A stretch of DNA of 64,000 nt from assembly GCA_000004985.1 (NCBI GenBank), contig GG738871.1; one strand, 5' to 3'. The translations under genes and the position numbers were made by a program. Positions 4,734 through 48,847 of this stretch are shown here, piece by piece; position 1 is the first letter of the stretch, and each line of letters opens with the position of its first letter. Source of the stretch: Naegleria gruberi (lineage: Eukaryota). The notes beneath the pieces are model-generated. The model had not been told where the DNA came from, did not search any database, and saw nothing but the letters and a program-made list of their open reading frames with translations.

Positions 4734-5931
4734 TTAATTATTGAAATTCAAAGTATCAAAGAAGGATTTCACTTGATTTTCCATATCTTGAATGTACTTT
4801 TCCTGTTCTTCCTCTTTGCCAATGAACCAACTTTGATAACAAGTCAAACACATGGCAAACGAAACTGCATTGAAATATTTCCTCCGTTCTTGATATCCTT
4901 TCCAGAAGGTTTCTGGATTCATATTTAGAGAAGGAAGAAGGTGTTTGTTCATTGATTCAATCATGAATTCTCGTTCTTCATCGTTGGTTGCATAATTATA
5001 AAGCATTTCTGAAATATCTTCATCAATGATTGAGAAGGAAGACCATTCCCAGTCAATTATGCCAGTAATGACTTTTGTTTGAGGATCTACAAGTGTATTA
5101 TTTGGAGTAATATCAATATGGCAAATTGACATTAAATTATACGGAAACTCTATTGTTGTTTCTAACATGTTCAATAAATCGTTGGAATTTAGTAACAAAG
5201 TAAGATAAGGAACCATTCTTGATAATTTTCATATCTTCCAATCGAAAATCAATTAAGGAAATGATGTAATCATTGAAAGAACGGAATGGACCTTTTAAGG
5301 TATCACAATTAGGACCAATGAGGGCAAGTACTTGACCATTTTTCATTTCAATACCTTGATAACATCCAAATAAGGGATTTGGCCCAGCTTGATCGTTATC
5401 ACAAGTTCTTGTGAGGAATTTTAAATCACTCAATTTGGATCTTTCCTTAACTATTTGATTCAAGTAATGTTTTCTTTCGTCAGTGGTCATGTCACCATAA
5501 ATTGTGTTCAATGTTATTCCTTCACACTTTGACATGAAAATGTATTCGTTTCCAATTAAATCACCTTCACAATCGTATCCATAAATGGTTGGCACTGGAA
5601 AATCTTTAACATTCTCACTAAGGAATTGGATCACCAACACTTCATTGAGAGTTTTCAATCTTTTCCAATTTGGGGGCAAAATTTTTACAATGCTCTTCAA
5701 TTCCTTATCATTTAATTTAATGGTCAAACAATAGACAGCATTGACAACTCCATTATCAATTTGTTGCACATCTATTGCTAATACACAAGTATCCGCATTG
5801 GTGCCATATTCGAAACCAATTCTTTCAGAAAGATCTCTTCGAAAGTCAGCACATTCCACCGCCGATTTGTTAATAATCTTGAATGCCTTTTCATTATCCA
5901 ATTGAATATCATAACGAGTGGATTCTCTCAT
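4734..5931 (-). CDS. Aminoglycoside-phosphotransferase/choline-kinase-like (APH fold) kinase. Two exons (5931..5214 and 5161..4734) with a putative 52-nt intron at 5162..5213, or else a frameshift.
   Basis: The C-terminal ORF carries 'ICHIDITPNNTLVD...GIIDWEWSSF' (APH catalytic loop HxDxxxxN plus DWE). The two overlapping track ORFs (5137..5976 and 4734..5216) differ by +1 frame. A 52-nt GTTCCT..TTAG intron restores the frame, giving '...KIIKN|ETTIEFPYNLMSICHID'. The donor is non-consensus, so a sequencing frameshift is equally possible. The track start at 5976 is TTG. The first in-frame ATG is at 5931. Confidence 0.5.
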
Positions 5932-6290
5932 TTTTTCTAGTGAATGAATTTCAACTTTGAATATTAACCACTTCAAATATTAAAATCTTCATTTCAAACT
6001 CGAAATTGAAATCAAAAACCTTAATATTTCTGAAGCAATTATCTTTCCAATTCGATTCCAGAGAGTTATTAAAGGTGTTATGCTCAATCATTGATCATAC
6101 ACTTTGGTAACACTATAAAATTCGAGTAATTGAGATGTTTTCTATTCCCTTACAACGACTTCTTCTATTTTTAAAGGTCATTACATAAAAATTCAGATGA
6201 TGAACTCTGTAAAACAACGCCAAGATAAAAACCCGCCAAAATTTTTAGCCTAGAACTATAAATTTCAAAAAAACAAATCAAATTATAGAA

Positions 6291-7376
6291 ATGATTAGCA
6301 ACACTGTTAATAACAGCAACAATAACGCACCTAATGCTTCCGAACCAATTGAAATTAAATTAAATTATTTGATGAAGAAGCATGATGATGATCAAATTAT
6401 TGAACAAAGTTTGCCTTCCTTCTCTCCTTTGGAAAATCTTCAAGATTTGAAAGATTATATTGCAAATCAATTTAATTCAAATTTGATGAATGATGATGAA
6501 GAACCAAAATCTGTCAAGATTGTTAAAGTTAAGGATTTCAAGGCAAAATCTGGTAAAAAGTTTAGAGCCCTTCATACTGATGAAGATTGGACCAATTCTA
6601 TCAATTCCATTCTTCAACATCGTCTTGATTCCTCTACCACAACTTCTGTTGAACCATTCATTGTTGATTTCAAGATTAGAATGAAAAAGTCCAAGAAGGA
6701 TAAAGTTTCTAATGATAAGAGTGAAAGAAAAGCTGAAAGAGAGCTCAAGAAACAAGAACGTCAAGAAAAACGTCGTTTCCAAAAGGAAGAATCTCAAAAG
6801 GTTCATGCTGATGATTTAATTCTCGTAGATGAAAGTACTGGAATTGCATCCAAGATGAATCCAGAAATTAGTAGAATTATCATTGATGGTAATAATCTCT
6901 TCTTCCAAACCAATACTTTGAGAGGTTTAATTCTCAAGAGTAAGAAGAAACACCAAGTTGAAGAATTACTTGTCCACATGGCTAAAAAGTATTCTCAATT
7001 CTCTGAAACAACTTTCAATCAAAAATTGAATTTAATGCATGTTGTTTTTGATGCTTCAAGCAATCAAGTTAATGGTACTTCCAATGATGGAACATTTGTT
7101 GTTTCATCTGCCAAGAAGGAAGGATTCACCATTGCTGATGATATGCTTGTTGAATTGGCAAATCGACAAAATATTGCTGGCACTTTGGATTCTTGTCTAT
7201 TTGTTACATCTGACAGAGGATTGAGAGAACGTTTGAAGTCCATTGGAGCTAAATGTATCAAGTCTGGAAGATGGATGGCATTTGCTCATGCTCATCTTTG
7301 TCCAAATGCAGCCACCACTTCAATTGATGAATGGACTGCTCAATTATGGAGTCAAGTTACTAATGAAAGTAACTAA
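6291..7376 (+). CDS. Possible PIN/NYN-like nuclease domain protein (YacP-like), with an N-terminal ubiquitin-like region and a central K/E-rich linker.
   Basis: The C-terminal half has 'IIIDGNNLFF', 'VVFDAS', 'TIADDMLVE' and 'FVTSDRGLRERLKSIGAKCIKS', which resemble the acidic-residue pattern of NYN/PIN domains. This 361-aa ORF begins with a real ATG. The family assignment is tentative. Confidence 0.5.
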   Translation: MISNTVNNSNNNAPNASEPIEIKLNYLMKKHDDDQIIEQSLPSFSPLENLQDLKDYIANQFNSNLMNDDEEPKSVKIVKVKDFKAKSGKKFRALHTDEDWTNSINSILQHRLDSSTTTSVEPFIVDFKIRMKKSKKDKVSNDKSERKAERELKKQERQEKRRFQKEESQKVHADDLILVDESTGIASKMNPEISRIIIDGNNLFFQTNTLRGLILKSKKKHQVEELLVHMAKKYSQFSETTFNQKLNLMHVVFDASSNQVNGTSNDGTFVVSSAKKEGFTIADDMLVELANRQNIAGTLDSCLFVTSDRGLRERLKSIGAKCIKSGRWMAFAHAHLCPNAATTSIDEWTAQLWSQVTNESN

Positions 7377-7702
7377 ATTAAGATACCACTCAAAGATTAC
7401 TCTTAATAAAAGAAGTCTTTTCTTAAATTATGATGCAAATTAATGAAATGTTCATAAAGGACAGTGGTGTAATAGTTTACAAAATATTGAGAAATGAAAT
7501 TAAAAAAGGAAACTTTCTAAATTCTGATAAATTATTATGCAAATTGATGGATTTTATTATCATTTTCATCAATAATAAGGTGATTTACAATCCAATATCA
7601 CAAACTTCTTTTCACAAACCTCATTATTCCCTAACCAAACCTACTTGTCAATTATAAACAAACAACTGTCACTTTTCAAACATTAAAATCAACACAAAAA
7701 AA

Positions 7703-8630
7703 ATGGGCAACAAACTCTCCCAAGCTGAAAAGCTCATCAAATCTGGTCAAAATTGCGACCTCGACTTGGATGAAAAGGAAATCAACAACAAGGAATTAGC
7801 ACAACTTTCCGATCTTCTCAGAAATAACAATACTTGTTATGCTCTCCATTTGAAGGCAAATAATTTTGATGAGAAGGGATTGGAAGCACTTGGAGAGGCG
7901 TTGCAGACTAATAGATTTTTGAAAAGATTGTATTTGAATAATAATAGAATTGGTGATGTAGGTTTACAACAATATTAAATAGTATTTAATATTTAAATGA
8001 TGATCAATGTTAATTAATATATTTAATTAAAATAATGATAATAATAATAATAATGGATGATATTCACTTTAGGTTGGATGTAAACATTTAGCTGATGCAA
8101 TTAAACGTGTGACAGCTCTTGGTATGATTGACATGTCAATGTCTGGTATTGGAACACAAGGAGCTAAATTCTTGGGAGTTTCTCTCGTTCTTAACAATTC
8201 CATTCACACAATTTACTTGACTGATAACACAATTGGTGCTGAAGGAACCAAAGCTTTGGCTGAAGGTTTGAAGGACAATAAGAAACTCAAAGTTTTGGAC
8301 ATTTCAAGAAATGATATTGGAAATGATGGAGCTGTTGCTTTGGCAGAAATGTTAAAAGTCAATTCAGTGTTGGAACAATTGTATATTGTCAAGAATAATA
8401 TTGGCACAACTGGATCCATTGCTTTGGCTGAAGCTTTGGTTGTAAATAAGGGAATGAGAAGTTTGAATATGGATTTTAATCCGATTGGTGATGATGGTGC
8501 AACTCCTTTCATGAAGGTTCTTCGTGAAAATGACAAGATTGAAAAGATTGAATTTGATGATAAGAGTATTTCTGAAGATTGGAAGAATGAATTTAGAATG
8601 AGATTACAAAGAAAGCAAGAAGTTCGTTAA
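7703..8630 (+). CDS. RNI-like leucine-rich-repeat protein (ribonuclease-inhibitor-type LRRs) with an N-terminal MG.. myristoylation-type start. Two exons (7703..7957 and 8073..8630) with a 115-nt intron at 7958..8072.
   Basis: 'MGNKLSQ...' is followed by repeats of 'L..L.L..N.IGD.G..ALAE.L' ('NNNRIGD|VGCKHLADAIKRV' spans the splice). The intron is GTAGGT...TTTAG and both exons are in phase 0. Confidence 0.7.
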
Positions 8631-8811
8631 TTATTTCTACTTTGTAATGACTATTGCGTGTTAATTGAATTATTGAACTATTTTGATGTTGTATTACCAT
8701 AAATACACAACAAATTTGCAAATCTAATTTGGATGTTAGTGTGTTGTCAAGTTGAAATCATACCACTAAGTTGTTGTTTCATAATTGTTTTTTGAATTGA
8801 GAAATTAAGAT

Positions 8812-9843
8812 TTACTTGTTTACAACAAATTCATCATCACCAAAAGTCACAATTATCTTGGCCTGTTGGTTAGTGAATGAGTCAGTTAGAAAATATGTAG
8901 ATTCTGGAAATATTTTAGTAACATCTTCCAGAGATTTGCAATTAGAAAGTTGTTGTTTAGCTGTTTTCATTTCCATTTTGGTTACAACTTTGTTAAAAAG
9001 TAGTGTTACTATACTATCATCACAATTCTTTAAATTGACAATTTTTGGAAGGGAAAGGTTGAACATTGCATGATAAATAGGTTTTCCATAATAAACTTTT
9101 AGAGAAGTCCAATTCAATACCATAAAAGGTAATTTGAAGAAATTTTCACCCAATGTTGACAATATCTCTTGATTTGTTAATTGCAAATATTTTTCCAATT
9201 TAGATATCATCTTCCAACCAAAATATATTACAATAGCTGATGGATGTTGAAATGGTAAACCATTTTTGTCAATTAGAGTATTCCATTCTATTATGTCTTT
9301 ATCAACTTCGTCTTGATATAAAAGTTTAGTTTTTGAGATGGTACCATCAGGATACTGAATAGTTGTCACACACATTCTATCAGCCCCTTTCTTATTCTTT
9401 GTTTTTTGGTAGATGTAATGAATTCCATCTTCACTAGTATCACCATTTAATGCAATTACTTTTGTTTCAACATTAAACTCCTCTAATAAAATAACAGATT
9501 CTTTCCATAACAATGATTCTAGCAATGCATTTGTTGGTACCATATTTGAGAAATATTCTTTAAACAAAATATTATTATTCCCCAATATTCTATGAGCATG
9601 GCATTTGGCTACTTCAAAACTTGCATTAAACTGTTCAAACTCAAGCCCATGGAGATTTTGAACACCCTTATTCCGAATACAACTACTTAACTTGTCAATA
9701 AAATCGCTAAAAACAGTATCTCTTGTTGGAATGGAAATATCGAGTGGTAAATTTGGTTGTACGACTATAAAATCAGTATCTACAGTATCCAAAGTAATAC
9801 ATCCATTTACTTCTAAAGATTCAATTGAAAACTTTTGCAACAT
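8812..9843 (-). CDS. Hypothetical protein, 343 aa. It lies immediately downstream of, and may be fused to, the P-loop NTPase gene.
   Basis: The ORF is long and begins with ATG. I recognise no domain. It sits only 75 nt downstream of the 9919..11418 stop on the same strand. A GTAATC..AG segment of 33 nt (9897..9929) would join the two ORFs in frame. Confidence 0.45.
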   Translation of the reverse strand: MLQKFSIESLEVNGCITLDTVDTDFIVVQPNLPLDISIPTRDTVFSDFIDKLSSCIRNKGVQNLHGLEFEQFNASFEVAKCHAHRILGNNNILFKEYFSNMVPTNALLESLLWKESVILLEEFNVETKVIALNGDTSEDGIHYIYQKTKNKKGADRMCVTTIQYPDGTISKTKLLYQDEVDKDIIEWNTLIDKNGLPFQHPSAIVIYFGWKMISKLEKYLQLTNQEILSTLGENFFKLPFMVLNWTSLKVYYGKPIYHAMFNLSLPKIVNLKNCDDSIVTLLFNKVVTKMEMKTAKQQLSNCKSLEDVTKIFPESTYFLTDSFTNQQAKIIVTFGDDEFVVNK

Positions 9844-9918
9844 AATATTTCTTCTAACTCTTCTGTTAATTAAGTGATAAGAAAAAATGGAATCAACTAT
9901 TTCTGAATATTCATAGAA

Positions 9919-11418
9919 TCAAGGATTACCTCTTTCAATGTTATTAAATATGGATTGCCAGTTAGATCCAGAGAAAGCCATTGCGTTTAACATGTATTCT
10001 ATTAATCTTGGAACACCACAACATCTATTTAAACACTTTGATAATTCTGGATGTGTCAATAAATTTGAATAACTCAATCCCAAGTTTGTAGCTTGTTTTG
10101 TACATCTTATTAAGTAGTTACGTAGAAATTGTAAAATATCTACCATAGACATACGTAGTCTAATAGGTTGGATATGGAGAATTGGATGAGTTGATTGTTT
10201 AATAGCTCTATTAATAGGTGTAAATGATAATCCAGAAAATATTGGAACAAAGAGTATATCTGTTAGACATTTAGTACAAACCTCTCCAAAAGTATTAATT
10301 GTCACATCTAAACCAGATCTAATTGTGTCGTCCACAACTTCTTCCAAATACTTATACTCATTCTCATTCAATTTTTGAAATTCATCAATAACCACAACAA
10401 TTGTAATCTTTGAAGAGGCAAAATATTCATCTTTAAGCCAAGAACAAAAATTAGCAACACTATCCAAGACCCAGTCGTTTTCATTAAATTCAGATTGCAA
10501 GTAATAAGTGGAAAATAAATAACACAATCTAATAGCAAAAAATCTATTTGCATAATTTGGAGTCTTAATGTAATCACTTTTGTATCTACCATAACCCATT
10601 CCATTTCTTCCCATTGGCAAGTACAATTCAATTCTGATATCTAAATATTCTTGTAAACTCTTATCTTCACAAACTTGTTTTGCACAATTAATTACTTCCA
10701 TTGCATTTCTAGTTTTTCCTGTACCTGGTGAAGTTGCAAATACAATGATTGGTACTTGGGTTTTATCAAGAGTGGATTGTAATGTATTATTTGAAAATCT
10801 TGTAAGTAAAGTCTTTGATATAGTTTTTCCTAATTCTTCTACTCCAATAAATTCCATAAAAGTACTGGCATTATTGAGAGCAGATATCTGTTGTATTCTG
10901 CCTTTGTTGATATCAATAATTGATTTTTTCTCTTTTAAATTACCAGAAATTAATAAACCACCAATCCATAATATAACAACCATAATACTATTTTGATCAA
11001 CATTTGGGAACTTTTGGGATATGGTGGTAATTGCTTCGGATAGGTTGATAGGTTGGTTTCTAATAATACTACCAATACTTTCACCACAGAAATCACCTTC
11101 ACAAAATAAACCTGAAACCTCCTTGCTCAAACCAACACCACCCTTATTTCTCTCAGTACATAACAAATAAAAAACTTCATCCTTTGTCCAATCCAAGTAC
11201 GGTGTATCCAATAGTTTTTTAATATAATCATCCGAATGTTTTATGATACCACTTTCAACCTTTGCCTTTTTGTTATAATCTTCCGATGCATTAATTTTTC
11301 TTTTTTTATCTTTTTCATCCAACAACTCCTGTGTAATAATATTAATATCCGACCGTTCTTTGTTGATTAGGTTTTCAATATCTTCAGACAAAGTTTCGAT
11401 CATGTGTTTTTCCTCCAT
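9919..11418 (-). CDS. P-loop NTPase of unrecognised family (Walker A 'ATSPGTGKT', Walker B 'IVVVIDEF').
   Basis: The 499-aa ORF starts with ATG. The central region has a GxxGxGKT P-loop and an hhhhDE Walker B, followed by 'FSGLS'. No further family-level signature is recognisable by eye. Confidence 0.6.
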   Translation of the reverse strand: MEEKHMIETLSEDIENLINKERSDINIITQELLDEKDKKRKINASEDYNKKAKVESGIIKHSDDYIKKLLDTPYLDWTKDEVFYLLCTERNKGGVGLSKEVSGLFCEGDFCGESIGSIIRNQPINLSEAITTISQKFPNVDQNSIMVVILWIGGLLISGNLKEKKSIIDINKGRIQQISALNNASTFMEFIGVEELGKTISKTLLTRFSNNTLQSTLDKTQVPIIVFATSPGTGKTRNAMEVINCAKQVCEDKSLQEYLDIRIELYLPMGRNGMGYGRYKSDYIKTPNYANRFFAIRLCYLFSTYYLQSEFNENDWVLDSVANFCSWLKDEYFASSKITIVVVIDEFQKLNENEYKYLEEVVDDTIRSGLDVTINTFGEVCTKCLTDILFVPIFSGLSFTPINRAIKQSTHPILHIQPIRLRMSMVDILQFLRNYLIRCTKQATNLGLSYSNLLTHPELSKCLNRCCGVPRLIEYMLNAMAFSGSNWQSIFNNIERGNP

Positions 11419-11771
11419 CCTATTTTTTAAATTTTTGTTTTTTTAATTTTTAAAAATTGGTTAAAGTTTTCAACCTGTTCTTGTTTCTGACCTCATTGTT
11501 TGAATTTTAGAAGATCAGGCGAAAACACTTCTGGTGAGAGATTCTTCTTCTGAACGATCCTATACATTACTAATCGTTTCATTGTTCTTGAATTGAATAT
11601 ATTTCTCGGAATCAGTGAACTGGCATTAATAGAGGAGGTTGTGTTTCAATTTCTCATTACTTGTCTGACTTGTTTCTTTGAAACCACTCTGTGTAACACA
11701 CCATCAAGCAGATTAAATTAAAATTTTGAAAATTTAAATTTTATAAAACCTAAAACGAGTTGTGTGAAATC

Positions 11772-12659
11772 TTATTCTTCCTTATTGGTATTCGACAACT
11801 TTTCTTTTGACTTTTCCTTAAGTTTCATCATGTTGGATTTTCTTTCTCCGGTAATCTTGTGTAATTTCTTTCTTCTCCACAAAATCTTGAATTCATTTCC
11901 GAACCATTCAGAACATCCTCCTCTATAGTTCAAAGTGTTTTGGAATCCCATTTCTTGCAAAATCATACAAGCAGCTTCACTTTCAGCAGGAGAATCACTG
12001 TAACAAATAATATTGGAATAAGCTTCTGGTAATGGTGCACCATATCTCTTGTTAAAAGCTTCAGCCTTCAATCCGACAGCACCTTCTTTAATATCAGTGA
12101 AAGGAATGTTGACTGCTCCTGGTATCATATAGTCCAAAGCACGGAAAGCAGAACGAACGTCTACTACCATATAATTGTAAACATCCTTAGGTTTTTTCAA
12201 CAATTCTTCCAATTCAGCCTTGGTAATAACTGGTGAAATTCTATCGGCAAGTTGTGGAACCATATCAAAAACACATGGTATATCGGCAATCTTCTTTCCT
12301 TGAACTGAGTTTTTAAAGTATTGTGGTTCTCTTTCATCTTCCCACAAAAGATCGTATTCTCTTCTATATGTACGTTTGTTGGCTTCTTCTTGTGCGGCAC
12401 GTTGAGATTCATCAAGGTCTACATCAATAGCAACATCTTCAGTGAGTTGGTTATATTGTTTTAATTTGTTCAAAATACGTTCGGTAACTTGATCTTCAGT
12501 AAAAGTCTTTCCACTCAAAACTGGTACATCGACAGGTTCGGATGATGTTGTAGCAGTTTTATCCAAAATTCTAATATTTGTATAATAATTATTGAAAGAA
12601 CAAATTGATGATGGCAAGAAATTCTTCTTTGCTGTTAATGTTACTAAACGTCTCATCAT
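11772..12659 (-). CDS. Rhodanese-like domain protein with a basic N-terminal presequence that is possibly mitochondrial.
   Basis: The C-terminus 'IICYSDSPAESEAACMILQEMGFQNTLNYRGGCSEW' fits the rhodanese/Cdc25 fold consensus. The N-terminus 'MMRRLVTLTAKKNF' looks like a targeting peptide. The start is ATG at 12659. Confidence 0.55.
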   Translation of the reverse strand: MMRRLVTLTAKKNFLPSSICSFNNYYTNIRILDKTATTSSEPVDVPVLSGKTFTEDQVTERILNKLKQYNQLTEDVAIDVDLDESQRAAQEEANKRTYRREYDLLWEDEREPQYFKNSVQGKKIADIPCVFDMVPQLADRISPVITKAELEELLKKPKDVYNYMVVDVRSAFRALDYMIPGAVNIPFTDIKEGAVGLKAEAFNKRYGAPLPEAYSNIICYSDSPAESEAACMILQEMGFQNTLNYRGGCSEWFGNEFKILWRRKKLHKITGERKSNMMKLKEKSKEKLSNTNKEE

Positions 12660-12783
12660 GATGAAAATTTTTTAATATTTTTTTCTGATGCAAAAAAAAT
12701 TTTATTTTTAATTGAATTATTAATTTTCTCTTTTCAAAACCATCACTGCTACGAGAAGTGTAAAGATAATTCTTATAAAACTC

Positions 12784-12980
12784 GATTATGAGAATGAATA
12801 GAATGCATTGATCCAACTCATTACATTGAAAAAAAAGAGGTGAAAAACTTTATTAATTACCATCAATTATAAAATTTACGATTATGAGAATGAATAGAAT
12901 GCATTGATCCAACTCATTACATTGAAAAAAAAGAGGTGAAAAAGCTTATCAATTACCATCAATTATAAAATTTACGATTC
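12784..12980. repeat. Tandem direct repeat with a 96-bp period, about 2.1 copies (unit 'gattatgagaatgaatagaatgcattgatccaactcattacattgaaaaaaaagaggtgaaaaa(c/g)(t/c)tta(t/a)taattaccatcaattataaaatttac').
   Basis: Copies start at 12784, 12880 and 12976 (partial) with 3 mismatches. It lies in the 350-bp divergent intergenic region between the gene starts at 12659 (-) and 13009 (+). Confidence 0.85.
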
Positions 12981-13008
12981 CGCGCCTAAAAAACACAACA
13001 AAAAAGAA

Positions 13009-13593
13009 ATGAGAAACATCCTCAATCATCATACTTTTGAAGAGAATACAGTGCCACGACCACACGATCAGACAAAGAAAGCCCTAGATCCCTTTCTGAG
13101 GGAGGCAATGGAAGCACTCTCTATAAATTTACAAACTTTTATGAAGTATACTGATTTTCATGAGAGTAAGGAGGGAAGATCGTTAATATTTGGTGTCTCG
13201 GCTCCAACAATTAGTTTTAGTTGCTCGACGAATAATAGTGTTTCCATGTCTACTTCCATGATGAGGCAATCAATTATTGGAACTAGTTTGTTGCAATTTG
13301 ATCCTGATTGTGTTGAGGAAGAAGAAATTATTCTCACTGAATCGGAATACAAACAATTGGAGGAAATTTACTTTAATCCCCTCAAGTACTTGGCAGAAAC
13401 TCTGAAGATTTTGAATGAAAACAAGCCAACACAAATTGAAGAGGATAAGTATGGTCTTGAGGAACTTCATTATGATGATGAATTGGATCAAGATTCTAGT
13501 ATTATAACAATTCAGAAGGAAACACCAGAACAAGCTCCTCCACCAGCCAAACCATTAATAATTAGAGGAAGAGCTAAAAGAAAATTTTACTAG
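13009..13593 (+). CDS. Hypothetical acidic protein, 194 aa.
   Basis: The ORF begins with ATG and ends 'PPPAKPLIIRGRAKRKFY' (basic tail). No domain is recognised. Confidence 0.45.
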   Translation: MRNILNHHTFEENTVPRPHDQTKKALDPFLREAMEALSINLQTFMKYTDFHESKEGRSLIFGVSAPTISFSCSTNNSVSMSTSMMRQSIIGTSLLQFDPDCVEEEEIILTESEYKQLEEIYFNPLKYLAETLKILNENKPTQIEEDKYGLEELHYDDELDQDSSIITIQKETPEQAPPPAKPLIIRGRAKRKFY

Positions 13594-13912
13594 TAATTGA
13601 AATTGTCATGAATTTAAATTGCCTGTTTTATTTTGAAATGCAACAGTAATGTCAGTTCATTGTTATTGGTTCTAATATTTGAGGAGTAAAATTAACTCTC
13701 CAAAGACAAGTAATATATGAGCAGTGAGGAATGAATAATAGAGTTCTAACGAAAAGTTATTTGAAAGAATGATCCATTTATCATCATTTGAATTTTATTA
13801 TTCCACATTCCAACGAACTAATAAAACCATTGAATCAACTCCTTACCTTAATGTTTAAATCAACCGGTCATCACGTCAATTAATATTCGAATTATTTAAT
13901 GTTCAATTAAAA

Positions 13913-14386
13913 ATGAGAGTACTCTTAAAGTTCAGAACCACTGCCAGATTATTCAACTCTTCCAAATCAACAACAAACACCTCGCCAGTTACCTCTGCTG
14001 TAGCTTCCGAAACCAAGTTTGAACCAATTTGTGCACAAAAAGGACCGTACGTTGTTACTTTGGAGGAAGGAAAGAAATATGGTTGGTGTACATGTGGACT
14101 CTCTGAGAAACAACCATTTTGTGATGGAAAGTAAGTTTGTGATAAATATTATCGGAACATCGGAATTGATTCTTGAAAATTTTGATAACATAGACATAAA
14201 GGAACTGGAATGAAGGTATGTTTAAATTATTTAACAATTTCAATTAATTGAGGTGTCATCTTTAATTAGTCCCTTAAATTTGAAGCTACACCAGAGTTGT
14301 GTGATAAGGAAGTTTATCTTTGTGGATGTAAACAATCCAAAAATCCACCATTCTGCGATGGTAGTCATTCCAATTTGTCCGAATAA
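13913..14386 (+). CDS. CISD3-like protein with two CDGSH iron-sulfur domains and an N-terminal presequence. Three exons (13913..14130, 14194..14215, 14270..14386). The middle exon is a 22-nt micro-exon.
   Basis: Exon 1 ends '...WCTCGLSEKQPFCDGK' followed by GTAAGT. The micro-exon encodes '(K)HKGTGMK' and is flanked by ..ATAG and GTATGT. Exon 3 encodes 'SLKFEATPELCDKEVYLCGCKQSKNPPFCDGSHSNLSE*'. Splice phases are 2, 0 and 0 and are consistent. The result reproduces the C.C..S...P.CDG.H spacing of both CDGSH motifs and the inter-motif 'TG..PLKF' segment. Confidence 0.65.
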
Positions 14387-14490
14387 ATTGTTTCAATTTG
14401 TAATTCAATTCTATTTGAAAATCCATTGTAAACTCGAAATATCATTGCAAATAATCTTATGGAAATATTTCAAATAAAAGAGTCTTCAAT

Positions 14491-15243
14491 CTAATCTTGA
14501 TACCAAAATACGACTGAAAATCTTTCTGCATGATCTGGATGATTTTTCTTCTGTATTTCATTTCTAATTCCATGCACATATTTATATCTGATATCATCAG
14601 CCAGAATAACTAAAGATCCATTTGGTAGTAAAACTCTAAACTCATCTGGACATTCCTGCACTTGTTCAATTGTAAAATTGGAAGGAGGATCAATCATGAA
14701 ACTCATTGTAGCATCATTTCCGAAAGATAACATTCCAATTGTTGGACCCAATCCTCTACTATCAATATGAAGAGGACATCCACTTTTTTCAATATCTTGA
14801 TAATGATTAATTTGAATAGTATTCGGAACAATGTTTGGATAGTCTGAATTCTCCAAACTGGACAGGGACATTACTGATGGACAAGGTCTCTTTCTCTTGT
14901 AGAAGAATGGTTTCAATGTTTGAATGTAGGCGAAGAGAGTTGGAAAGTACAAATCGGCACACTTTTCAACTTGACTCTCCGAGTGTACATTAAAGATGGA
15001 TCGTTTTAATTGTGGATTGGCAAGGAAGGGTTCATGTTTTTGCAAGTTTTTCAATTCATTCCAAATGGTTTGAGAGTCTTTTGGAGAGATGAAAGTAGGA
15101 TGATAGAGTGCTGTTGGTGGTGTTTGTTCTAAATCGGATTTTAATATTTGAACAGCAGGATTATTGGCAAGAAGAGGAGCAATAAAGTTGGTTGACGAAG
15201 CTGCTGATGTTTGCTTATTAATGAGTCCTTTGAGAAAATTCAT
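14491..15243 (-). CDS. AlkB-family 2OG-Fe(II) dioxygenase.
   Basis: 'NHYQDIEKSGCPLHIDSRGLGP' contains the H.D motif. 'LVILADDIRYKYVHGI' carries the distal His. 'RFSVVFW' is the Arg..S motif that binds 2OG. The ORF is 250 aa and starts at ATG 15243. Confidence 0.7.
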   Translation of the reverse strand: MNFLKGLINKQTSAASSTNFIAPLLANNPAVQILKSDLEQTPPTALYHPTFISPKDSQTIWNELKNLQKHEPFLANPQLKRSIFNVHSESQVEKCADLYFPTLFAYIQTLKPFFYKRKRPCPSVMSLSSLENSDYPNIVPNTIQINHYQDIEKSGCPLHIDSRGLGPTIGMLSFGNDATMSFMIDPPSNFTIEQVQECPDEFRVLLPNGSLVILADDIRYKYVHGIRNEIQKKNHPDHAERFSVVFWYQD

Positions 15244-15886
15244 TTTTTTGAATTGTTAATCTTGGGCAATTGGATGAAAAGAACATAAGTAGGCAATTTG
15301 AAAATATCCCTTCCAAAATCGCTGGAGACTTTTTGTCCACTTTTCACCATCAGAATTTTTTCCACCGGCTAGCTGGCAAAGTGGGAGGACAGCTTCCATT
15401 TCAACTTCTAATTCGATCATCACAACAATAAAAAATATTCGTGATGGTGGTAGTAAGCAAGAAAACAATTTAGAGCAATAACTTATTATTACTTCATGAA
15501 AACAAAAACTAACAATAAATTGCTTTATCACAACATCATTGGATAATATTGAGTTTTTTTCTTCTGTTTATTGTTCAAGTTTGCTATTGAAAAAGGTTTG
15601 TAGCTGGTGGACAAGCGTAAGACTGGGGCATCGAAATAGAAAGTAAATTAGAAGCCGTCCTCTCACTTTGCAAGCTCGGGGCTGGAAAAAAATCAAGCGA
15701 AAATTTTATCGTTTTTCGTCACAAAAATGAAGCTTGAAAATGGAAGGGATATTTGAAAACCATCTTGGTTGTGTTGACATGAAGTTTATGTTAAATATCA
15801 ACAGTATTCAAAGTCCGCATTGGATTAAAAAGAAGTTAAAATGTAAATTTTGAATTTTTGAATTTATATGGTGTGTTTTAATTTAT

Positions 15887-16501
15887 TTAATAGCCTAATT
15901 CAGCCAACTTCTTGACAACAGTTTGGAATTCAGTGTTACCACTCAATTGTTCAGTAGCTTCACTCTTGAGATTTTGCAAAGTCTTGACTTCAGCAACGTA
16001 AGCTTGATTTTGTTGCTTTCTTTGTTCTTCGTATTTAACAACAACATCGTGATACTTCCAACCCATTCTCTTCAACAAGTCACCGACTCTAGTAACAGGT
16101 GAGCTTGGCTTCAAGATGGTAACAGCGAGAGCAGATGGACAGACGAATCTCTTAACTTGGTTGTATTGAGCTGGGACACCGTCGAAGAGTTCCAATCTAG
16201 CCAAAGCTTGTCTACCCTTTTCAGTCTTTCTGGAGACCATAGCTCTGATGATCTTGTAGAGATGTTGAGATGGAGCTCTGTGATGGAATGGACCCTTTCT
16301 TGGATTGGTGTTCATTCTCTTTCTCAAGTATGATTCGTAAGCTTCCTTGTTTCTCTTCATCTTACCTTGGATAAGGAGTTCTTCACATCTGACGACGACG
16401 ACCTTCTTTCCGCTCAAAGCTTCCTTGGCAACGTGGGCAGCGAGACGACCCAAGATGTGACCCTTACCATCGAGAACAACAGTACGATTGAATGTAGACA
16501 T
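15887..16501 (-). CDS. RPL13A: 60S ribosomal protein L13a (uL13).
   Basis: 'VVLDGKGHILGRLAAHVAKEALSGKKVVVVRCEEL...RKRMNTNPRKGPFHHRAPS' is a near-universal uL13/L13a signature. Codon usage is more GC-rich than in neighbouring genes, as expected for a highly expressed gene. Confidence 0.92.
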   Translation of the reverse strand: MSTFNRTVVLDGKGHILGRLAAHVAKEALSGKKVVVVRCEELLIQGKMKRNKEAYESYLRKRMNTNPRKGPFHHRAPSQHLYKIIRAMVSRKTEKGRQALARLELFDGVPAQYNQVKRFVCPSALAVTILKPSSPVTRVGDLLKRMGWKYHDVVVKYEEQRKQQNQAYVAEVKTLQNLKSEATEQLSGNTEFQTVVKKLAELGY

Positions 16502-17448
16502 CTTTAATGAATAATGATAATAACAATAATTGTTGTGAAGAGATTCAAATAGTACATCATCACAATAGGGGAAGTAAGTATGAGGTGAGTTTGACAGAAT
16601 AAAATGCTACGTACTTTTTGCGATTTTTTTTTCGAACAAGTTTTATAAAATATAGTGGGGTTGGAGTTTTACAATGAAAACATTTGTGAGCCAAAATTTG
16701 CTTGCCAAAAAAACTCTCTTCGGCAAACAAGAAAGAAGAGGCTCCTATGCAATAATAACAATTAGCTAATGTTGGACCAGAGGATATTGTAGGAATTATC
16801 AAACATGGGAAGTATGATCAACAACAAAGTATCATTTCATCAATCTTGCATAGTGATGAGAGAAAATTAATATTCATGTGTTTTGATCATCAAACAAGAG
16901 CCATACATGGCACGGAAATCTATTGAATATAATTTTTGGATAAATTAACAGGAACACAAATACAAAACAATTAGGTATTGCCATCATCATGGAGTTCTTC
17001 CTGGTCATTTGTGAATTATTCATAGAGCTGCAACATCCGTGTCTTCTGAAAATTTTCTATTTTCAAAATCATTCTTGAATTTGAAAGTTCTTGTGAATGA
17101 TGAAAAACTCTTCATTCCTTAGAAATAGGCACATTTCACCTTAAACAATGATATTGACCAATAAGAGTGGTAATGTTGATTGTTAGGATACTTTGCTTCT
17201 CACATATTCATAATAATAGACAAACCATTGGTTGTTTTCATTGACATGTGGTAATCTTCAATCCTATGACGAAGCAACCTCCTCAACACTCGACACTGGA
17301 TAAGAAGCTCTCTATAGCTTAATGAAAAGAGAAGGTATTGGTGTTGATAGAATAGCATAAGAATGTCATGACGCATTGGGTAGAGAAACTCAATTACCTA
17401 GATTACTTTATCAAGCACAAATTTTGCGACATTTGATTTCAGTGTGCA

Positions 17449-44148: not shown

Positions 44149-45618
44149 ATGTCGATATGGGGATTTGAGGATATTCTCTTCTTGTTTATTTCATTAATTT
44201 GTTCTCTTGTTCTCATTAGATCATTCATGAGAAGGAGGAAAAAGCAACAACAACGAGAAACATCATCCACAACAATAGCAACTACAAATAATGTACATGA
44301 AACCTCTGGTTTATCATCAATAATAACAAAACCAAGTCCAGTCGATATGATGGCAGGAACAGCTACTAAAAAACCAAAAATCACACGACACTACCAAGAT
44401 GGACACTCCTTTCCACATACTGCCTCTATTATCATCATGATCATCATTCTCTGTTTATCATACAGTACTATTCTCACTATACAGTGCATCTACATGGGCC
44501 AAGCTGCTTACAATATGATGAATGAAGATTCCTATCACAGCAAGGAAATAATTTTAGGATTTGATGCTTCAGTGAGAGGTCTCTTCTCTATTGCCTATCT
44601 TGCCCAACTTGTTCTCTCACTTAATTACTTTACAATTTTGTACAAGTTTTCATCAAGGCACTTGGCTCACAAAATTGTTTTTGCAGCTATTGGATTGTTG
44701 GGCTGTTTGAACTTGTCCCTCAATGTAGTTTCTCACTTGTTCAAAATTCTCTACACTTATTTTAATATCAAGTTTGCAGGAAGTGGACCTGCTACATTAT
44801 TGGTTGAACAAATTTCCATCCTAGTTTCTGCCTCAACATCAATATTTTTATCACTAATTATTGCACTTGCAGCAGTTTTGTTCGCATTTGTTAATAATCC
44901 TAATAATATGAGGAGATTAAGATCTAGATTAATTCTTTTTATTTTCCTGCATCAATTTGTTTGGATTATTTATGAAACTTATAGAATTATTTCACAATTT
45001 GATATATTATTTGGAATTCAATTGGTATCATGGCCAGATTTAATAATGCAATCAATAATGTATCTCCTCTTGATTACCTATGTATTGATAGTGGTGATAA
45101 CAATTGCACTTTTCAATAGAGGAAATGAACATCAAGCTCTTCTTTCTACTGAATGGATGGCACTTATTGAGGATGAGGATGATGCTGAACCAACCATTTT
45201 CGATTTCCAAGCCAAATCCAGAGCTATTCATGCTCGCCCTAACATGGATCAAATTCCAACTCACTCCCTCTCCCCTCACTCATTCAATAATATGAGTGAA
45301 AGTACCTATGGAGCTATGGGTTATAACAGTATGGTTGGTAGTTTACCGATCGGTATGAGAAAGGCAACACCAAACACTAGCTTGGGTTTTGAAGCATCCA
45401 TGTATTCCACCAATCCAGTTAATGCCCAATCTAGTGCCAATAATAATAGACATTCTGGAAACAATCAAGGACGTCTCAATACCTCCTCATCCATTATTTA
45501 CAATCGTTCCGACAATGTACCAATTCTCAAAGAAGAAGAACCTCCAAAAGACACCATTTACTCCTCCAGTCTTACTTCTAACAATTCATCATCCTCCTGG
45601 ACACACAAACTCAACTAG
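44149..45618 (+). CDS. Multi-pass (about 7 TM) integral membrane protein with a Ser/Asn-rich cytoplasmic tail. Possibly a GPCR-like or TOM1/THH1-like family member.
   Basis: The protein is 489 aa and starts with a real ATG. There are at least 7 hydrophobic helices, for example 'ILFLFISLICSLVLI', 'IIIMIIILCLSYSTILTI', 'LFSIAYLAQLVLSL', 'IVFAAIGLLGCLNL', 'ISILVSASTSIFLSLIIALAAVLFAF', 'LILFIFLHQFVWIIY' and 'IMYLLLITYVLIVVITIALF'. Confidence 0.5.
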   Translation: MSIWGFEDILFLFISLICSLVLIRSFMRRRKKQQQRETSSTTIATTNNVHETSGLSSIITKPSPVDMMAGTATKKPKITRHYQDGHSFPHTASIIIMIIILCLSYSTILTIQCIYMGQAAYNMMNEDSYHSKEIILGFDASVRGLFSIAYLAQLVLSLNYFTILYKFSSRHLAHKIVFAAIGLLGCLNLSLNVVSHLFKILYTYFNIKFAGSGPATLLVEQISILVSASTSIFLSLIIALAAVLFAFVNNPNNMRRLRSRLILFIFLHQFVWIIYETYRIISQFDILFGIQLVSWPDLIMQSIMYLLLITYVLIVVITIALFNRGNEHQALLSTEWMALIEDEDDAEPTIFDFQAKSRAIHARPNMDQIPTHSLSPHSFNNMSESTYGAMGYNSMVGSLPIGMRKATPNTSLGFEASMYSTNPVNAQSSANNNRHSGNNQGRLNTSSSIIYNRSDNVPILKEEEPPKDTIYSSSLTSNNSSSSWTHKLN

Positions 45619-45847: not shown

Positions 45848-46990
45848 ATGTTCAAAGGTTACTCTTCCATTCAAAATCACTTTCTCAAGGACGTTGATTC
45901 CTATCCACTCCAAACACAATACGATCCACAGGTACCATGGATCGTAACAGAAAAGATTCACGGATCAAACTTTAGTTTTGTAGTGAGTCTTGTAAAGGAT
46001 GATGCTGCATCAATTGATGATAATAATTTACAAATTCAGGTGGCAAAACGTACGGAAATTTTGGCAGATAATGATCCGTCTTATTATCCAAAGGCTGTTC
46101 GATCAGTTCGTGAATTATATGATGAAAAGATGAAATTGTTATTTAAGAATTTGGCTCTTGATTTGGAAAAGAAGAGAAATGTAAAACTTGTTAGTTTGAG
46201 TGTTTTTGGTGAATTATTTGGTGGTAATTATCCACATAAGGATGTAAAGAATGTTGGTGATAGAGCTCCGATTCAGAGACATGTGTATTATTGTACAGAT
46301 TTTGATTTTTATGTATTTGATATCTTTGTTTTTACAAAGAGTGATGATCCTAATGAAAAGAGATTGAATTATTTCCTTTCCTATGATGATATGGTGGAAC
46401 AAGTGAAAAAAACTGGTTTGGATTGTTATGCAAGAGAATTATTTAGAGGTAAATTGGAAGAATGCTTGAATTATGACAGTGTATTTGATTCTGTCATTCC
46501 TTCCACAATCTATGGTTTACCAGACATGCCTCATCACACCAATATTTGTGAAGGTATCATTATTAAGCCACTTATTGATATGAGGACTGATAAAAATGAT
46601 AGAATGGTTATCAAGAAGAAGAATGATAACTTTATGGAAAAAATTGGTCAAAAAGACAAGGTCAGAAAGGAAAGACTAGTAAAACAAAATACTGGTAAGA
46701 AATTCATTGATGATAAATCAGAACAAGCTATGAGTGATGTCCTCTCCTACATGAATGAAAATAGACTGGAAGGTAACATTTCAAAACTAGGTGACATTTT
46801 CAATTTCCCAAAAATTAGGGAAAGTTGCGTCTATTTACTTGCCCAAGATACTTTGAAGGACTATAGAGAGGAGAATTCTGAAGTGTGGGATCAACTTCCT
46901 AAGGAAGATCGTAAAGCAATCTCTGGTGCCTTACCTGCAATTGCTAAACGTTTTGTTGAGGAATATGTCAGTAAGAATAAACAAAATTAA
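45848..46990 (+). CDS. ATP-dependent RNA ligase of the phage T4 Rnl2 / kinetoplastid editing-ligase (REL) family, comprising a nucleotidyltransferase domain and a C-terminal domain.
   Basis: The N-terminus 'MFKGYSSIQNHF' parallels the T4 Rnl2 N-terminus as I remember it ('MFKKYSSLENHY', from memory and unverified). 'WIVTEKIHGSNFSF' is motif I (K.HG.N, with the AMP-lysine). 'LSVFGELFGG' is motif III. 'DFYVFDIFV' is motif IV. 'CEGIIIKP' is motif V. 'MVIKKKND' is the K.K.N motif. The protein is 380 aa and starts at ATG 45848. Confidence 0.8.
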   Translation: MFKGYSSIQNHFLKDVDSYPLQTQYDPQVPWIVTEKIHGSNFSFVVSLVKDDAASIDDNNLQIQVAKRTEILADNDPSYYPKAVRSVRELYDEKMKLLFKNLALDLEKKRNVKLVSLSVFGELFGGNYPHKDVKNVGDRAPIQRHVYYCTDFDFYVFDIFVFTKSDDPNEKRLNYFLSYDDMVEQVKKTGLDCYARELFRGKLEECLNYDSVFDSVIPSTIYGLPDMPHHTNICEGIIIKPLIDMRTDKNDRMVIKKKNDNFMEKIGQKDKVRKERLVKQNTGKKFIDDKSEQAMSDVLSYMNENRLEGNISKLGDIFNFPKIRESCVYLLAQDTLKDYREENSEVWDQLPKEDRKAISGALPAIAKRFVEEYVSKNKQN

Positions 46991-47173: not shown

Positions 47174-47794
47174 TTACAATAATTGACATTGTCTATTCTT
47201 TCTCGATAACAATTCTTGTTGTTTCTTTTCCTTATTTTCAAAATATAAACGAATCACTTGATCAAAAACATTCTTCACTCCAGCACCTGTCTTTGCCGAA
47301 CATTCAACATATTTGGCTGCCTTGACATCTGCTCTGAGTTTTTCTCCCATTTCTTGTGAAATGACAGTTTTTCCTCTTTCTTTCAGTTTTTGTAAAATAG
47401 TTTCGTCTTCCCTCAGATCTGTTTGTGTTCCTATCAGAAGGATTGGCACATCCTTGCAGTGGTGGCGCACTTCTGGACACCATTTGAGTTTAACATTTTC
47501 ATAACTAGCTGGGATGACTGTACTGAAACACATGAGGAAGGTTTGTGTTCCTGGATACGAAAGTGGACGAATCGAATCAAAACTTTCTTGACCAGCCGAA
47601 TCCCACAATCCCAAATTGACAATATTTCCATCAACCTTTACACTGCAACTATAATTATCAAAAACAGTTGGTAAATATTCCTCAGTAAATTTATCATTGG
47701 CATAGACGTATAATAGACATGTCTTTCCTACTGCACCATCACCTACGGTAACGCACTTGATATGAGTAATGGAAGTCATTTTGTTGTTGTTCAT
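47174..47794 (-). CDS. Rho-family small GTPase (Rac/Rho-like) with a C-terminal CAAX box 'CQLL'.
   Basis: '[17 protein letters not shown]' is G1. 'YLPTVFDNY' is the switch I region. 'WDSAGQE' is G3. 'TQTDLRED' is G4. 'CSAKT' is G5. The C-terminus is 'KNRQCQLL'. The likely true start is the internal '[10 protein letters not shown]'. Confidence 0.88.
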
Positions 47795-48134: not shown

Positions 48135-48847
48135 CTATTTATTCTTTTTAAATGTTGATTTGACTTGATTATTCCCCTCCTTATATCTGTAAACAGTTAT
48201 TTTAATATTGGTTTCAGAGAAGAGTTCACAAAGAATTTCCTTCACCTTCTCCCATTCCAACTTATCCAAACCAATTCCTATTTGTGGCATTGCTAAATTG
48301 GTGATATTAAACCTCAGCATGTGTTCCTTCATGTGGGCAAGACTGGATTTTAATGATTCGTAGGTTGGCACATGGAAATATCGTTCCTTAGTTACCAAAT
48401 AACTTTCATGAAAAATTTTAAAGAATTTCATGTGTTAAATTTCCATATTTCAAGATAAAACATACTAGATCATCATTTCCTCATTAGGAACATACAGTGT
48501 GGCCATTTCTCCAATTTTAGCACCCTGTTCTTTCAATCCATCCACACATCCATATTTTTCCTTGAAAATAACTGCAATTCCTGCTCCCATATTCAAATCA
48601 ACACTCACACAATGACACATGCTTTTGGAAATTTTCAAAGTGGAATCTCTCGATTATCGGAAAGAGGTACTTGTGAGGGGACTGTTTCTTTCCAATCGGA
48701 GCTCTTCAACGAGGTGAATAAATCACCATCCATTTCAGTGATGAGAAATTCATGGGAATGATTGGTCTCGAGATCTAGTTGTGGTGAATGATCTTGTTTC
48801 ATTTTTTTAAAGTAAATTTGGATTTTGCATTCACACAAAGTTTTCAA
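48135..48847 (-). CDS. OARD1/TARG1-like macrodomain (O-acyl-ADP-ribose deacylase / ADP-ribosyl-Glu hydrolase) gene. There is a 63-nt intron at 48403..48465 and an apparent frameshift in the 5' coding region (~48630..48660). It may be a pseudogene or a sequence error.
   Basis: The spliced 3' part 'MCHCVSVDLNMGAGIAVIFKEKYGCVDGLKEQGAKIGEMATLYVPNEEMMI|YYLVTKERYFHVPTYESLKSSLAHMKEHMLRFNITNLAMPQIGIGLDKLEWEKVKEILCELFSETNIKITVY' aligns along its length with the human OARD1 sequence as I recall it ('CRMGAGIAVLFKKKFG...[74 protein letters not shown]', from memory and unverified). The expected upstream 'ITEMDGDLFTS' (OARD1 'ITYVKGDLFACP') is present but in the -1 frame (track ORF 48635..48847). The switch must occur within about 20 nt, which is too short for an intron. 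Confidence 0.6.

Follow-up and report, generated by a model that had tools for sequence, protein, structure and literature searches.

RNA ligase 2 of phage T4 (T4 Rnl2, gp24.1; structures 2HVQ, 2HVR, and 1S68) consists of a nucleotidyltransferase (NTase) domain followed by a helical C-terminal domain. The C-terminal domain alone suffices for efficient substrate binding, and a salt bridge joins R266 to D292 (PMC4599027); T4 Rnl2 without this domain keeps its step-3 activity (PMC4408790). The kinetoplastid RNA-editing ligases REL1 and REL2 (RELs) belong to the same superfamily, and their diverged C-terminal domain binds KREPA partners with an OB fold (PMC4599027). Rnl5-type ligases include NgrRnl (5COT) from Naegleria gruberi, which has the defining N-terminal domain of Rnl5 and no C-terminal domain; in experiments NgrRnl seals nicks with 3'-OH and 5'-PO4 ends, with RNA as the 3'-OH strand (PMC4408790). 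The subject here is another N. gruberi ligase, encoded at positions 45,848 to 46,990 on the plus strand of a 64,000-nucleotide stretch of contig GG738871.1 (assembly GCA_000004985.1); this whole stretch is called the window below.

The gene is an uninterrupted open reading frame (ORF) of 380 codons plus a stop in the ORF listing, intact and at the location given in an earlier preliminary description of the window. Several in-frame stops lie within 300 nt 5' of the ATG, the closest six codons before it. A homology search and a cluster look-up match the 380-residue product, at 100% identity, to XP_002676530.1 of N. gruberi NEG-M (EFC43786.1, D2VHE3), which carries the source-database name "mitochondrial RNA ligase"; an exact-product query of the contig index gave no match. 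The unusually rich RNA-repair repertoire of N. gruberi was highlighted in 2015, and XP_002676530.1 is on the published list of "five different Rnl2 family members" (Unciuleac & Shuman, RNA 2015, PMC4408790). Its assignment to the Rnl2 family is already published, and the gene is a known, orthodox family member. Another N. gruberi protein of the family, XP_002674912.1, has been aligned and placed in a tree with T4 Rnl2, REL1/2, and the Diplonema ligase DpRNL (Moreira et al. 2015, PMC4599027).

As a discovery the gene carries little weight, being annotated in GenBank and UniProt and named on the 2015 list; it is a reasonable, unsurprising target among the RNA ligases of Naegleria, of which 15 putative ones are published. 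What is added here is that the REL-derived names used in N. gruberi and Acrasis lack sequence support, and that heterolobosean Rnl2 genes form an old, duplicated nuclear clade of their own with introns in one species. The residual novelty lies in the unsupported "mitochondrial" name and in the origin of the heterolobosean clade.

Taken as a whole, the locus is best explained, with good probability, as encoding a catalytically competent two-domain Rnl2 ligase of a heterolobosean clade, most likely a stand-alone enzyme of RNA nick repair in the cytosol or nucleus. The product is solidly predicted to be an Rnl2-family ATP-dependent RNA ligase. It matches two Pfam families well past what chance would give, both with a cut-off of 27 bits: RNA_ligase PF09414 (76.1 bits, E 4.7e-21, residues 30-257) and T4_Rnl2_C PF18043 (81.6 bits, E 5.1e-23, profile positions 3-81 of 82). 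PHROG 548 "RNA ligase" matches from end to end (E 1.9e-43), and the only two solved structures found by sequence are TbREL1 1XDN (E 6e-12) and T4 Rnl2 2HVQ (E 4e-11). The features of the gene, all on the plus strand, are as follows.

45848..46990, plus strand: full single-exon coding sequence of the N. gruberi Rnl2-family RNA ligase XP_002676530.1 / EFC43786.1 / D2VHE3 (ORF listing, 100% identity).
45848..46624, plus strand: nucleotidyltransferase (adenylyltransferase) domain, residues 1-259 (Pfam PF09414 at residues 30-257, alignment to T4 Rnl2 and REL1, AlphaFold2 model).
45953..45970, plus strand: motif I, KIHGSN, with K36, H38, and N41 (alignment to T4 K35/H37/N40 and TbREL1 K87/H89/N92).
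46049..46051, plus strand: R68, equivalent to T4 R55 and TbREL1 R111 (invariant alignment column).
46205..46225, plus strand: motif III, FGELFGG, with E122 equivalent to T4 E99 and REL1 E159 (alignment).
46304..46324, plus strand: motif IIIa, DFYVFDI, with F157 and D158 equivalent to T4 F119 and D120 and to REL1 F209 and D210 (alignment).
46550..46570, plus strand: motif IV, EGIIIKP, with E235 equivalent to T4 E204 and REL1 E283 (alignment).
46607..46624, plus strand: motif V, VIKKKN, with K256 and K258 equivalent to T4 K225 and K227 and to REL1 K307 and R309 (alignment).
46625..46705, plus strand: lysine-rich flexible interdomain linker, residues 260-286 (low model confidence, poor alignment).
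46706..46948, plus strand: Rnl2-type all-helical C-terminal domain, residues 287-367 (Pfam PF18043, AlphaFold2 helices at 289-376).
46763-46765 and 46847-46849, plus strand: R306 and D334, equivalent to the T4 R266-D292 salt bridge partners (alignment, both conserved).

The catalytic residues were mapped in a 75-sequence alignment that includes T4 Rnl2 and TbREL1. K36, H38, G39, N41, R68, E122, and E235 are invariant across it, and E35 (aligned with T4 E34 and TbREL1 E86), F157, D158, K256, K258, R306, and D334 are nearly so. K36 is predicted from T4 K35 and TbREL1 K87 to be the lysine that accepts adenosine monophosphate (AMP). T4 R55 and TbREL1 R111 contact the phosphates and ribose of ATP and the adenylylated 5' end (PMC4599027, PMC12440814), and REL1 F209 stacks on the adenine (PMC4599027). 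The same two sources (PMC4599027, PMC12440814) provide the roles of K35/K87, R55/R111, K225/K227, and the R266-D292 salt bridge. The TbREL1 contacts to ATP, namely E86, K87, N92, R111, E159, F209, K307, and R309, correspond to E35, K36, N41, R68, E122, F157, K256, and K258. Every cited residue that contacts ATP or the adenylylated RNA (AppRNA) is conserved, and the mapped catalytic residues are intact across the aligned heterolobosean sequences. Other essential T4 residues, such as Y5, E34, H37, and N40, entered the analysis as conserved positions only.

All motif strings quoted in the preliminary description are found (KIHGSN from residue 36, FGELFGG from 120, DFYVFDI from 153, EGIIIKP from 235, and VIKKKN from 254), including the motif I lysine. 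Its labels, however, were shifted. Aligned with T4, DFYVFDI falls on motif IIIa and not IV, EGIIIKP on motif IV and not V, and VIKKKN on motif V. The N-terminal 12 residues do parallel T4 Rnl2 as it had remarked (MFKGYSSIQNHF here, MFKKYSSLENHY in T4, with 8 of 12 positions matching). The C-terminal domain that it placed after the motifs is present but was overestimated at about 150 residues, since 122 follow the last motif V lysine, K258. Of its two-part family label, Rnl2-type stands by domains, motifs, and fold, whereas REL-type finds no specific support: the protein is without REL loops and presequence and never clusters with REL in the distance trees.

The AlphaFold2 model, built with 48 homologues, has a mean per-residue confidence (pLDDT) of 90.6 and a pTM of 0.87. 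Most of the NTase domain exceeds a pLDDT of 90; confidence drops to 58-78 in the linker (residues 261-290), and the only other low-confidence stretch is residues 11-20. The linker is poorly aligned and variable in length across homologues. In a Foldseek search of the PDB, the top matches are full-length T4 Rnl2, 2HVR (E 8e-17) and 2HVQ (E 1e-16). The alignment to them covers both domains, and a different interdomain orientation accounts for the high global root-mean-square deviation. TbREL1 1XDN (E 2e-15, TMt 0.75) comes next, together with 1S68, the NTase domain of T4 Rnl2. NgrRnl follows at E 3e-7 with a TM-score of about 0.35, then LigIV at 2.6e-3 and a capping enzyme at 1.4e-2.

T4 Rnl2 is the best structural match, and the likeness extends along the whole protein. 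The two are collinear from residue 1: the NTase domain has no N-terminal extension, opens at the position of T4 residue 1, and keeps Y5. The Naegleria protein also retains motifs I, III, IIIa, IV, and V and the equivalents of R55 and of R266-D292. For the C-terminal domain, the PF18043 score of 81.6 bits here is close to T4's own 84.6, compared with 35 for REL2, 26.9 for a Bodo REL, and 20.3 for REL1. Unlike T4 Rnl2, the Naegleria protein is the product of a eukaryotic nuclear gene; identity between them is 29%. It has a loop of about 14 residues (GGNYPH...) past motif III that is without counterpart in T4, a 12-residue insert past motif I, and an extended helix region (residues 81-110), and it lacks the T4 insert ahead of motif IV.

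By homology to T4 Rnl2 and TbREL1, the reaction would begin with attack of K36 on ATP to form a ligase-(lysyl)-AMP intermediate, the nucleotide being held by E35, H38, N41, R68, E122, F157, E235, K256, and K258. In step 2, AMP would be moved to the 5'-phosphate at a nick of duplex RNA or of an RNA-containing duplex, with the substrate bound by the helical C-terminal domain (residues 287-367), as the T4 domain does. In step 3, the RNA 3'-OH would attack the AppRNA and the nick would be sealed. The T4 C-terminal domain is needed for complete sealing, and the domain is kept here with a putative R306-D334 salt bridge. The strong conservation of this domain, salt bridge included, predicts self-sufficient nick sealing with no OB-fold partner. 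With its start at the position of T4 residue 1 and without a presequence, the protein would most likely reside in the cytosol or nucleus, and a stand-alone role in RNA nick repair there is the most likely one. Shuman's group has speculated that Rnl2- and Rnl5-type enzymes mend guide-directed breaks of RNA or patches of RNA within DNA (PMC4408790).

The name "mitochondrial RNA ligase" looks like an annotation transfer from trypanosome REL, because the protein has no presequence, no REL loops, and no specific REL affinity; the ligase is probably not mitochondrial. A check for a mitochondrial targeting signal finds no presequence, with 4 residues ahead of the Tyr5 equivalent compared to 57 in REL1, 27 in REL2, and 27-103 across RELs. 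The REL stretches are basic and almost without acidic residues, as presequences would be; the first 25 residues of the Naegleria ligase include 2 K, 0 R, and 2 D, for a net charge of about 0. Naegleria, Willaertia, and Acrasis proteins have 4-7 residues ahead of the Tyr5 equivalent, like T4 and bacterial proteins; N. lovaniensis, an ENA Naegleria sequence, Willaertia, and Acrasis all share the N-terminal start of the N. gruberi ligase. The two RNA-binding loops of REL lie between motifs III and IIIa (about 167-177 and 190-200 in TbREL1; PMC4599027), and the Naegleria protein has about 23 residues fewer than REL1 between these motifs (alignment block REL1 155-215). The GGNYPHKDVKNVGDR loop directly after motif III, about 23 residues shorter than its REL1 counterpart, is missing in T4 but also present in bacterial, phage, and Arcella relatives.

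Likeness to the RELs is otherwise that of the superfamily: the NTase fold is common to both and the C-terminal domains are distantly homologous. In pairwise BLASTP, T4 Rnl2 (29% identity), REL1 (27%), and REL2 (26%) all score 80 bits. Two apparent markers were tried and rejected. The resemblance of LLAQDTLKDY to LLAKDALKDF does not indicate REL affinity, as C-terminal domain identity is 0.23 with REL and 0.22 with phage and bacterial proteins. Nor does T4_Rnl2_C divide Rnl2 from REL: REL2 passes the threshold, the Bodo REL and REL1 fall below it, and only the strength of the match differs between Rnl2 proper and REL.

REL2, the more weakly matching REL1, and the Bodo REL C-terminal domains (P0113, P0136, P0162) keep the equivalents of R266 and D292. 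On these residues and the T4_Rnl2_C matches, the KREPA-binding domain of the editing ligases is best described as a diverged Rnl2 C-terminal domain and not an unrelated module. Doubtful names occur elsewhere as well. An Acrasis kona paralogue is called "RNA-editing ligase 1, mitochondrial" and is likewise without a presequence, and Chitinophaga and Spirosoma proteins called "2'-5' RNA ligase" are Rnl2-type (PF09414 and PF18043), not LigT. The names of P0001, P0192, P0020, and P0233 look like annotation errors.

Relatives of the ligase occur in at least 467 of 185,579 prokaryotic species genomes, scanned with one genome per species, and the best 80 are mostly full-length Bacteroidota proteins at 29-34% identity (among the genera Tenacibaculum, Kordia, Flavobacterium, Chryseobacterium, and Paludibacter). 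The best non-heterolobosean matches in the homology search are metagenome and Bacteroidota proteins at 30-33% identity. Rnl2-type proteins are also present in Arcella, the foraminifer Bolivina, and a dinoflagellate. A search with a heterolobosean profile adds homologues in two Funneliformis species, the N. fowleri orthologue XP_044562477.1, two further Acrasis kona copies, and the N. gruberi paralogue P0194 (XP_002679286.1), which is on the 2015 list too. With relatives in these prokaryotes, several protists, and Funneliformis fungi, the preliminary view that Rnl2 is known mainly from phages and the trypanosomatid editosome is outdated. Rnl2 is also among the genes of prokaryote-to-ciliate lateral gene transfer (LGT) in a 2026 study (PMC13198582).

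Two neighbour-joining (NJ) trees were built from simple corrected distances over 335-340 trimmed columns with 300 bootstraps. The RELs are monophyletic at 100%, Naegleria and Willaertia group at 99-100%, and in the second tree all nine heterolobosean sequences form one clade at 73%. Heterolobosean and REL sequences group together in 0% of the 300 bootstraps of both trees. When heterolobosean proteins are scored against clade-profile hidden Markov models, the phage/bacterial profile ranks highest (256-276 bits), followed by Chitinophaga/Arcella (212-249), dinoflagellate/MMETSP (195-212), and T4-like phages (175-193). REL is the poorest-fitting profile (72-117), and the ranking agrees in both directions.

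By identity and by profile score, the closest kin outside Heterolobosea are Rnl2 proteins of Bacteroidota and large phages and not the editing ligases of kinetoplastids. These proteins reach a maximum identity of 37% on trimmed columns and have the same post-motif-III loop, length class, and N-terminal start; they differ in being prokaryotic or viral and in lying outside the heterolobosean clade. The eukaryotic distribution of Rnl2 is patchy; within it, the heterolobosean proteins make up a single old clade, later duplicated. An ancient transfer from bacteria or phages is the preferred beginning for this clade, although it is not settled by distance trees. The preliminary alternative of an ancestral discoban enzyme or a viral acquisition is likewise settled by neither tree, and the evidence leans away from a specific REL link.

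The paralogue P0194 (402 residues) and the Acrasis kona paralogues have the same architecture and belong to the same heterolobosean clade. P0194 differs in its 17-residue N-terminal extension and its 32% identity to this ligase, and it clusters with the Acrasis copies outside the Naegleria and Willaertia orthologue group (99%). Acrasis P0008 was rejected as a 1:1 orthologue, as the profile search and second tree make the Acrasis copies lineage-specific duplicates nearer the other N. gruberi paralogue. Diplonema papillatum DpRNL is another Rnl2-family protein of a non-kinetoplastid discoban with no recognisable targeting signal, and it was placed without support beside N. gruberi XP_002674912.1 in the published tree (PMC4599027). 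In contrast to the full-length, orthodox Naegleria protein, DpRNL is 203 residues long, its C-terminus is vestigial, and its ATP contacts are proposed to be rewired (PMC4599027).

The ligase is a long-term nuclear resident gene, as its native GC content at third codon positions (GC3), its synteny with N. lovaniensis, and the spliceosomal introns of its orthologue attest. GC and GC3 of the ORF are 0.334 and 0.276, compared with 0.346±0.022 and 0.291±0.030 for 30 long ORFs of the window. The N. lovaniensis ligase (contig L005, PYSW02000009.1) has three exons in three different frames, separated by two canonical GT..AG introns at about 8129-8276 and 8830-8887, one just past motif I (NFS|YVV) and the other inside motif IV (EG|IIIKP). 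Introns have been gained or lost within the genus, since N. gruberi and Willaertia genes are intronless and the N. lovaniensis gene has two. Downstream of the N. lovaniensis orthologue lie a macro-domain gene, a 735-residue gene, and a leucine-rich-repeat gene, as in the window; N. gruberi has in addition a Ras-family GTPase gene and two further stretches. Synteny and orthologue introns bear out the nuclear half of the earlier phrase "stand-alone nuclear copy"; as to number, the gene is one of five published paralogues and not a lone copy, with no other found by tblastn within the window.

Read as the GenBank/UniProt name has it, the protein would be a mitochondrial ligase of the REL1/REL2 kind, acting on mitochondrial transcripts in an editing or processing complex. 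This is very unlikely, even though the best PDB sequence match is marginally TbREL1 (6e-12 versus 4e-11 for T4 Rnl2), the ELFGG-YPH segment past motif III and the C-terminal LLAQDxLKDY are common with RELs, and Heterolobosea and Euglenozoa are sister groups (PMC4599027). The ELFGG-YPH loop is found in bacterial and phage relatives too, the C-terminal domain is as close to theirs as to that of REL, and the pairwise scores are equal for T4, REL1, and REL2. The shared start without extension in Naegleria, Willaertia, and Acrasis, the missing REL loops, the poor REL profile fit, and the absence of any bootstrap grouping with REL all point elsewhere. Vertical descent of heterolobosean Rnl2 and kinetoplastid RELs from one ligase of the discoban ancestor, with REL a fast-evolving, complex-embedded derivative and the free-standing Naegleria enzyme the ancestral state, is unlikely. 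It would agree with the membership of both lineages in Discoba, their common two-domain architecture, and the T4_Rnl2_C domain kept in REL2 and more weakly in REL1, and the long REL branch may be misplaced by distance methods at deep nodes that are unsettled. No replicate unites the two groups, however, and the NJ trees join REL, at a weak 59%, to a dinoflagellate/MMETSP clade instead. The Bacteroidota/phage profile is a far better fit in both directions, and the patchy spread of Rnl2 (Arcella, Bolivina, a dinoflagellate, Funneliformis), together with the ciliate LGT (PMC13198582), fits repeated transfer better than vertical descent. A more specific form, in which REL1 and REL2 were recruited from a free-standing, non-mitochondrial discoban ligase surviving as the heterolobosean clade and the Bacteroidota/phage affinity is an artefact of accelerated REL evolution, is also quite improbable. 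If it were true, Naegleria would supply a tractable "pre-editosome" enzyme and so reveal what the ligase gained on capture by the editing machine (presequence, RNA-binding loops, KREPA-dependent C-terminal domain).

A recent horizontal acquisition or a bacterial or phage assembly contaminant, rather than a functional amoeba gene, has next to no probability. Naegleria eats bacteria, the nearest non-heterolobosean kin are Bacteroidota and phage proteins, and the N. gruberi copy is intronless; yet even the best prokaryotic or phage matches reach no more than 29-34% identity, the ligase has the GC and GC3 usual for window genes, and the flanking genes, including the Ras-family GTPase, are eukaryotic. 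Orthologues occur in N. fowleri and Willaertia. The positional orthologue of N. lovaniensis, with its downstream order kept and two spliceosomal introns, effectively refutes contamination or recent transfer. That the protein is some other nucleotidyltransferase (DNA ligase, capping enzyme, or Rnl5) or a catalytically dead Rnl2 relic is scarcely credible, despite a score below the TIGR02307 cut-off. Matches to DNA ligase or capping enzyme were sought and rejected: no such Pfam match is found, the C-terminal domain is all-helical and not an OB fold, and the fold matches are far weaker (Foldseek E > 1e-3, versus about 1e-16 for T4 Rnl2). Rnl5 (DraRnl/NgrRnl) membership is rejected as well, in agreement with the preliminary description; TIGR02306 gives 13.8 bits against a cut-off of 151, the NTase domain begins at residue 1 with no preceding domain, and a C-terminal domain follows. 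NgrRnl shares with the ligase the organism, the NTase fold, and the predicted nick chemistry. The intact catalytic residues, conserved in the aligned heterolobosean sequences, speak against a dead relic.

Several points weigh against the reading as a two-domain Rnl2 nick-repair ligase of the cytosol or nucleus. The NCBIfam Rnl2 equivalog TIGR02307 gives 156 bits, under the curated cut-off of 197.15, compared to 467 for T4, 411 for REL1, 489 for REL2, and 214 for the phage relative P0009. Because several bacterial and protist relatives also fall below it (P0186 at 192, Chitinophaga at 175, Arcella at 159, and other heterolobosean proteins at 150-154), the cut-off is treated as a measure of nearness to the T4/REL seeds and a sub-clade threshold, not the family boundary. 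The deeper NJ nodes are unsettled, most below 60%, and a real kinship with the long-branched RELs could be masked in distance trees. A missing presequence is compatible with import through an internal or cryptic signal, which the protein may have. Preference for RNA:RNA or RNA:DNA nicks is beyond what sequence can tell. In the literature, PMC4408790 is the sole paper found that names XP_002676530.1, and no biochemistry or localisation of it was found.

On one side of the N. gruberi ligase lies a 489-residue unannotatable ORF and on the other the convergent Ras-family GTPase gene. The 489-residue ORF (44149-45618, plus strand), directly upstream, has hydrophobic stretches like membrane spans and a Ser/Asn-rich low-complexity tail, with no Pfam match at E <= 0.01. 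In N. lovaniensis, a convergent macro-domain gene (L005, 9393-10091) is immediately downstream of the ligase. The N. gruberi macro-like gene is 58% identical to it and has a weak Pfam Macro match on its last exon. The Ras-family GTPase gene sits between the N. gruberi ligase and the macro-like gene (47174-47794 and 48135-48431, minus strand, for this part of the window) and is not there in N. lovaniensis.

Among the other eukaryotic relatives, the dinoflagellate MGD and MMETSP proteins P0176, P0185, P0174, and P0175 have N-terminal extensions of 48-102 residues, and theirs is the only group tending to join the REL clade. Funneliformis caledonium and F. mosseae each have a 394-residue Rnl2 homologue of full architecture (P0216 and P0274), on contigs of 39-42 kb.

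The prokaryotic and viral relatives lie in varied surroundings. The contig of P0186 is bacterial and has ABC-transporter and SHMT genes. P0009 comes from a phage-like 65-kb contig (L002, Logan SRR14610203), where its Rnl2-type ligase gene (8001-9011) belongs to a co-directional overlapping array at 8001-17011. This array also includes an Rnl1-type ligase (15174-16277), a PolyA_pol/CCA-like nucleotidyltransferase, an HD+AAA_33 (Pnkp-like) kinase-like gene, RlaP, a metallophosphatase, ClpP, and an SNF2 helicase. The array resembles a viral RNA-repair cassette of unusual completeness, in contrast to the Naegleria locus, where there is none such around the ligase. P0021 is on a phage-like 167-kb contig (L008, ENA ERZ23498485 scaffold_7) with clamp loader, phage clamp, Thy1, dUTPase, and RlaP genes. 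Directly upstream of its Rnl2 gene, at 5238-7988, genes for three response-regulator receivers, one PAS-domain protein, and one HATPase_c protein form a two-component-system-like cluster that is unusual for a virus.

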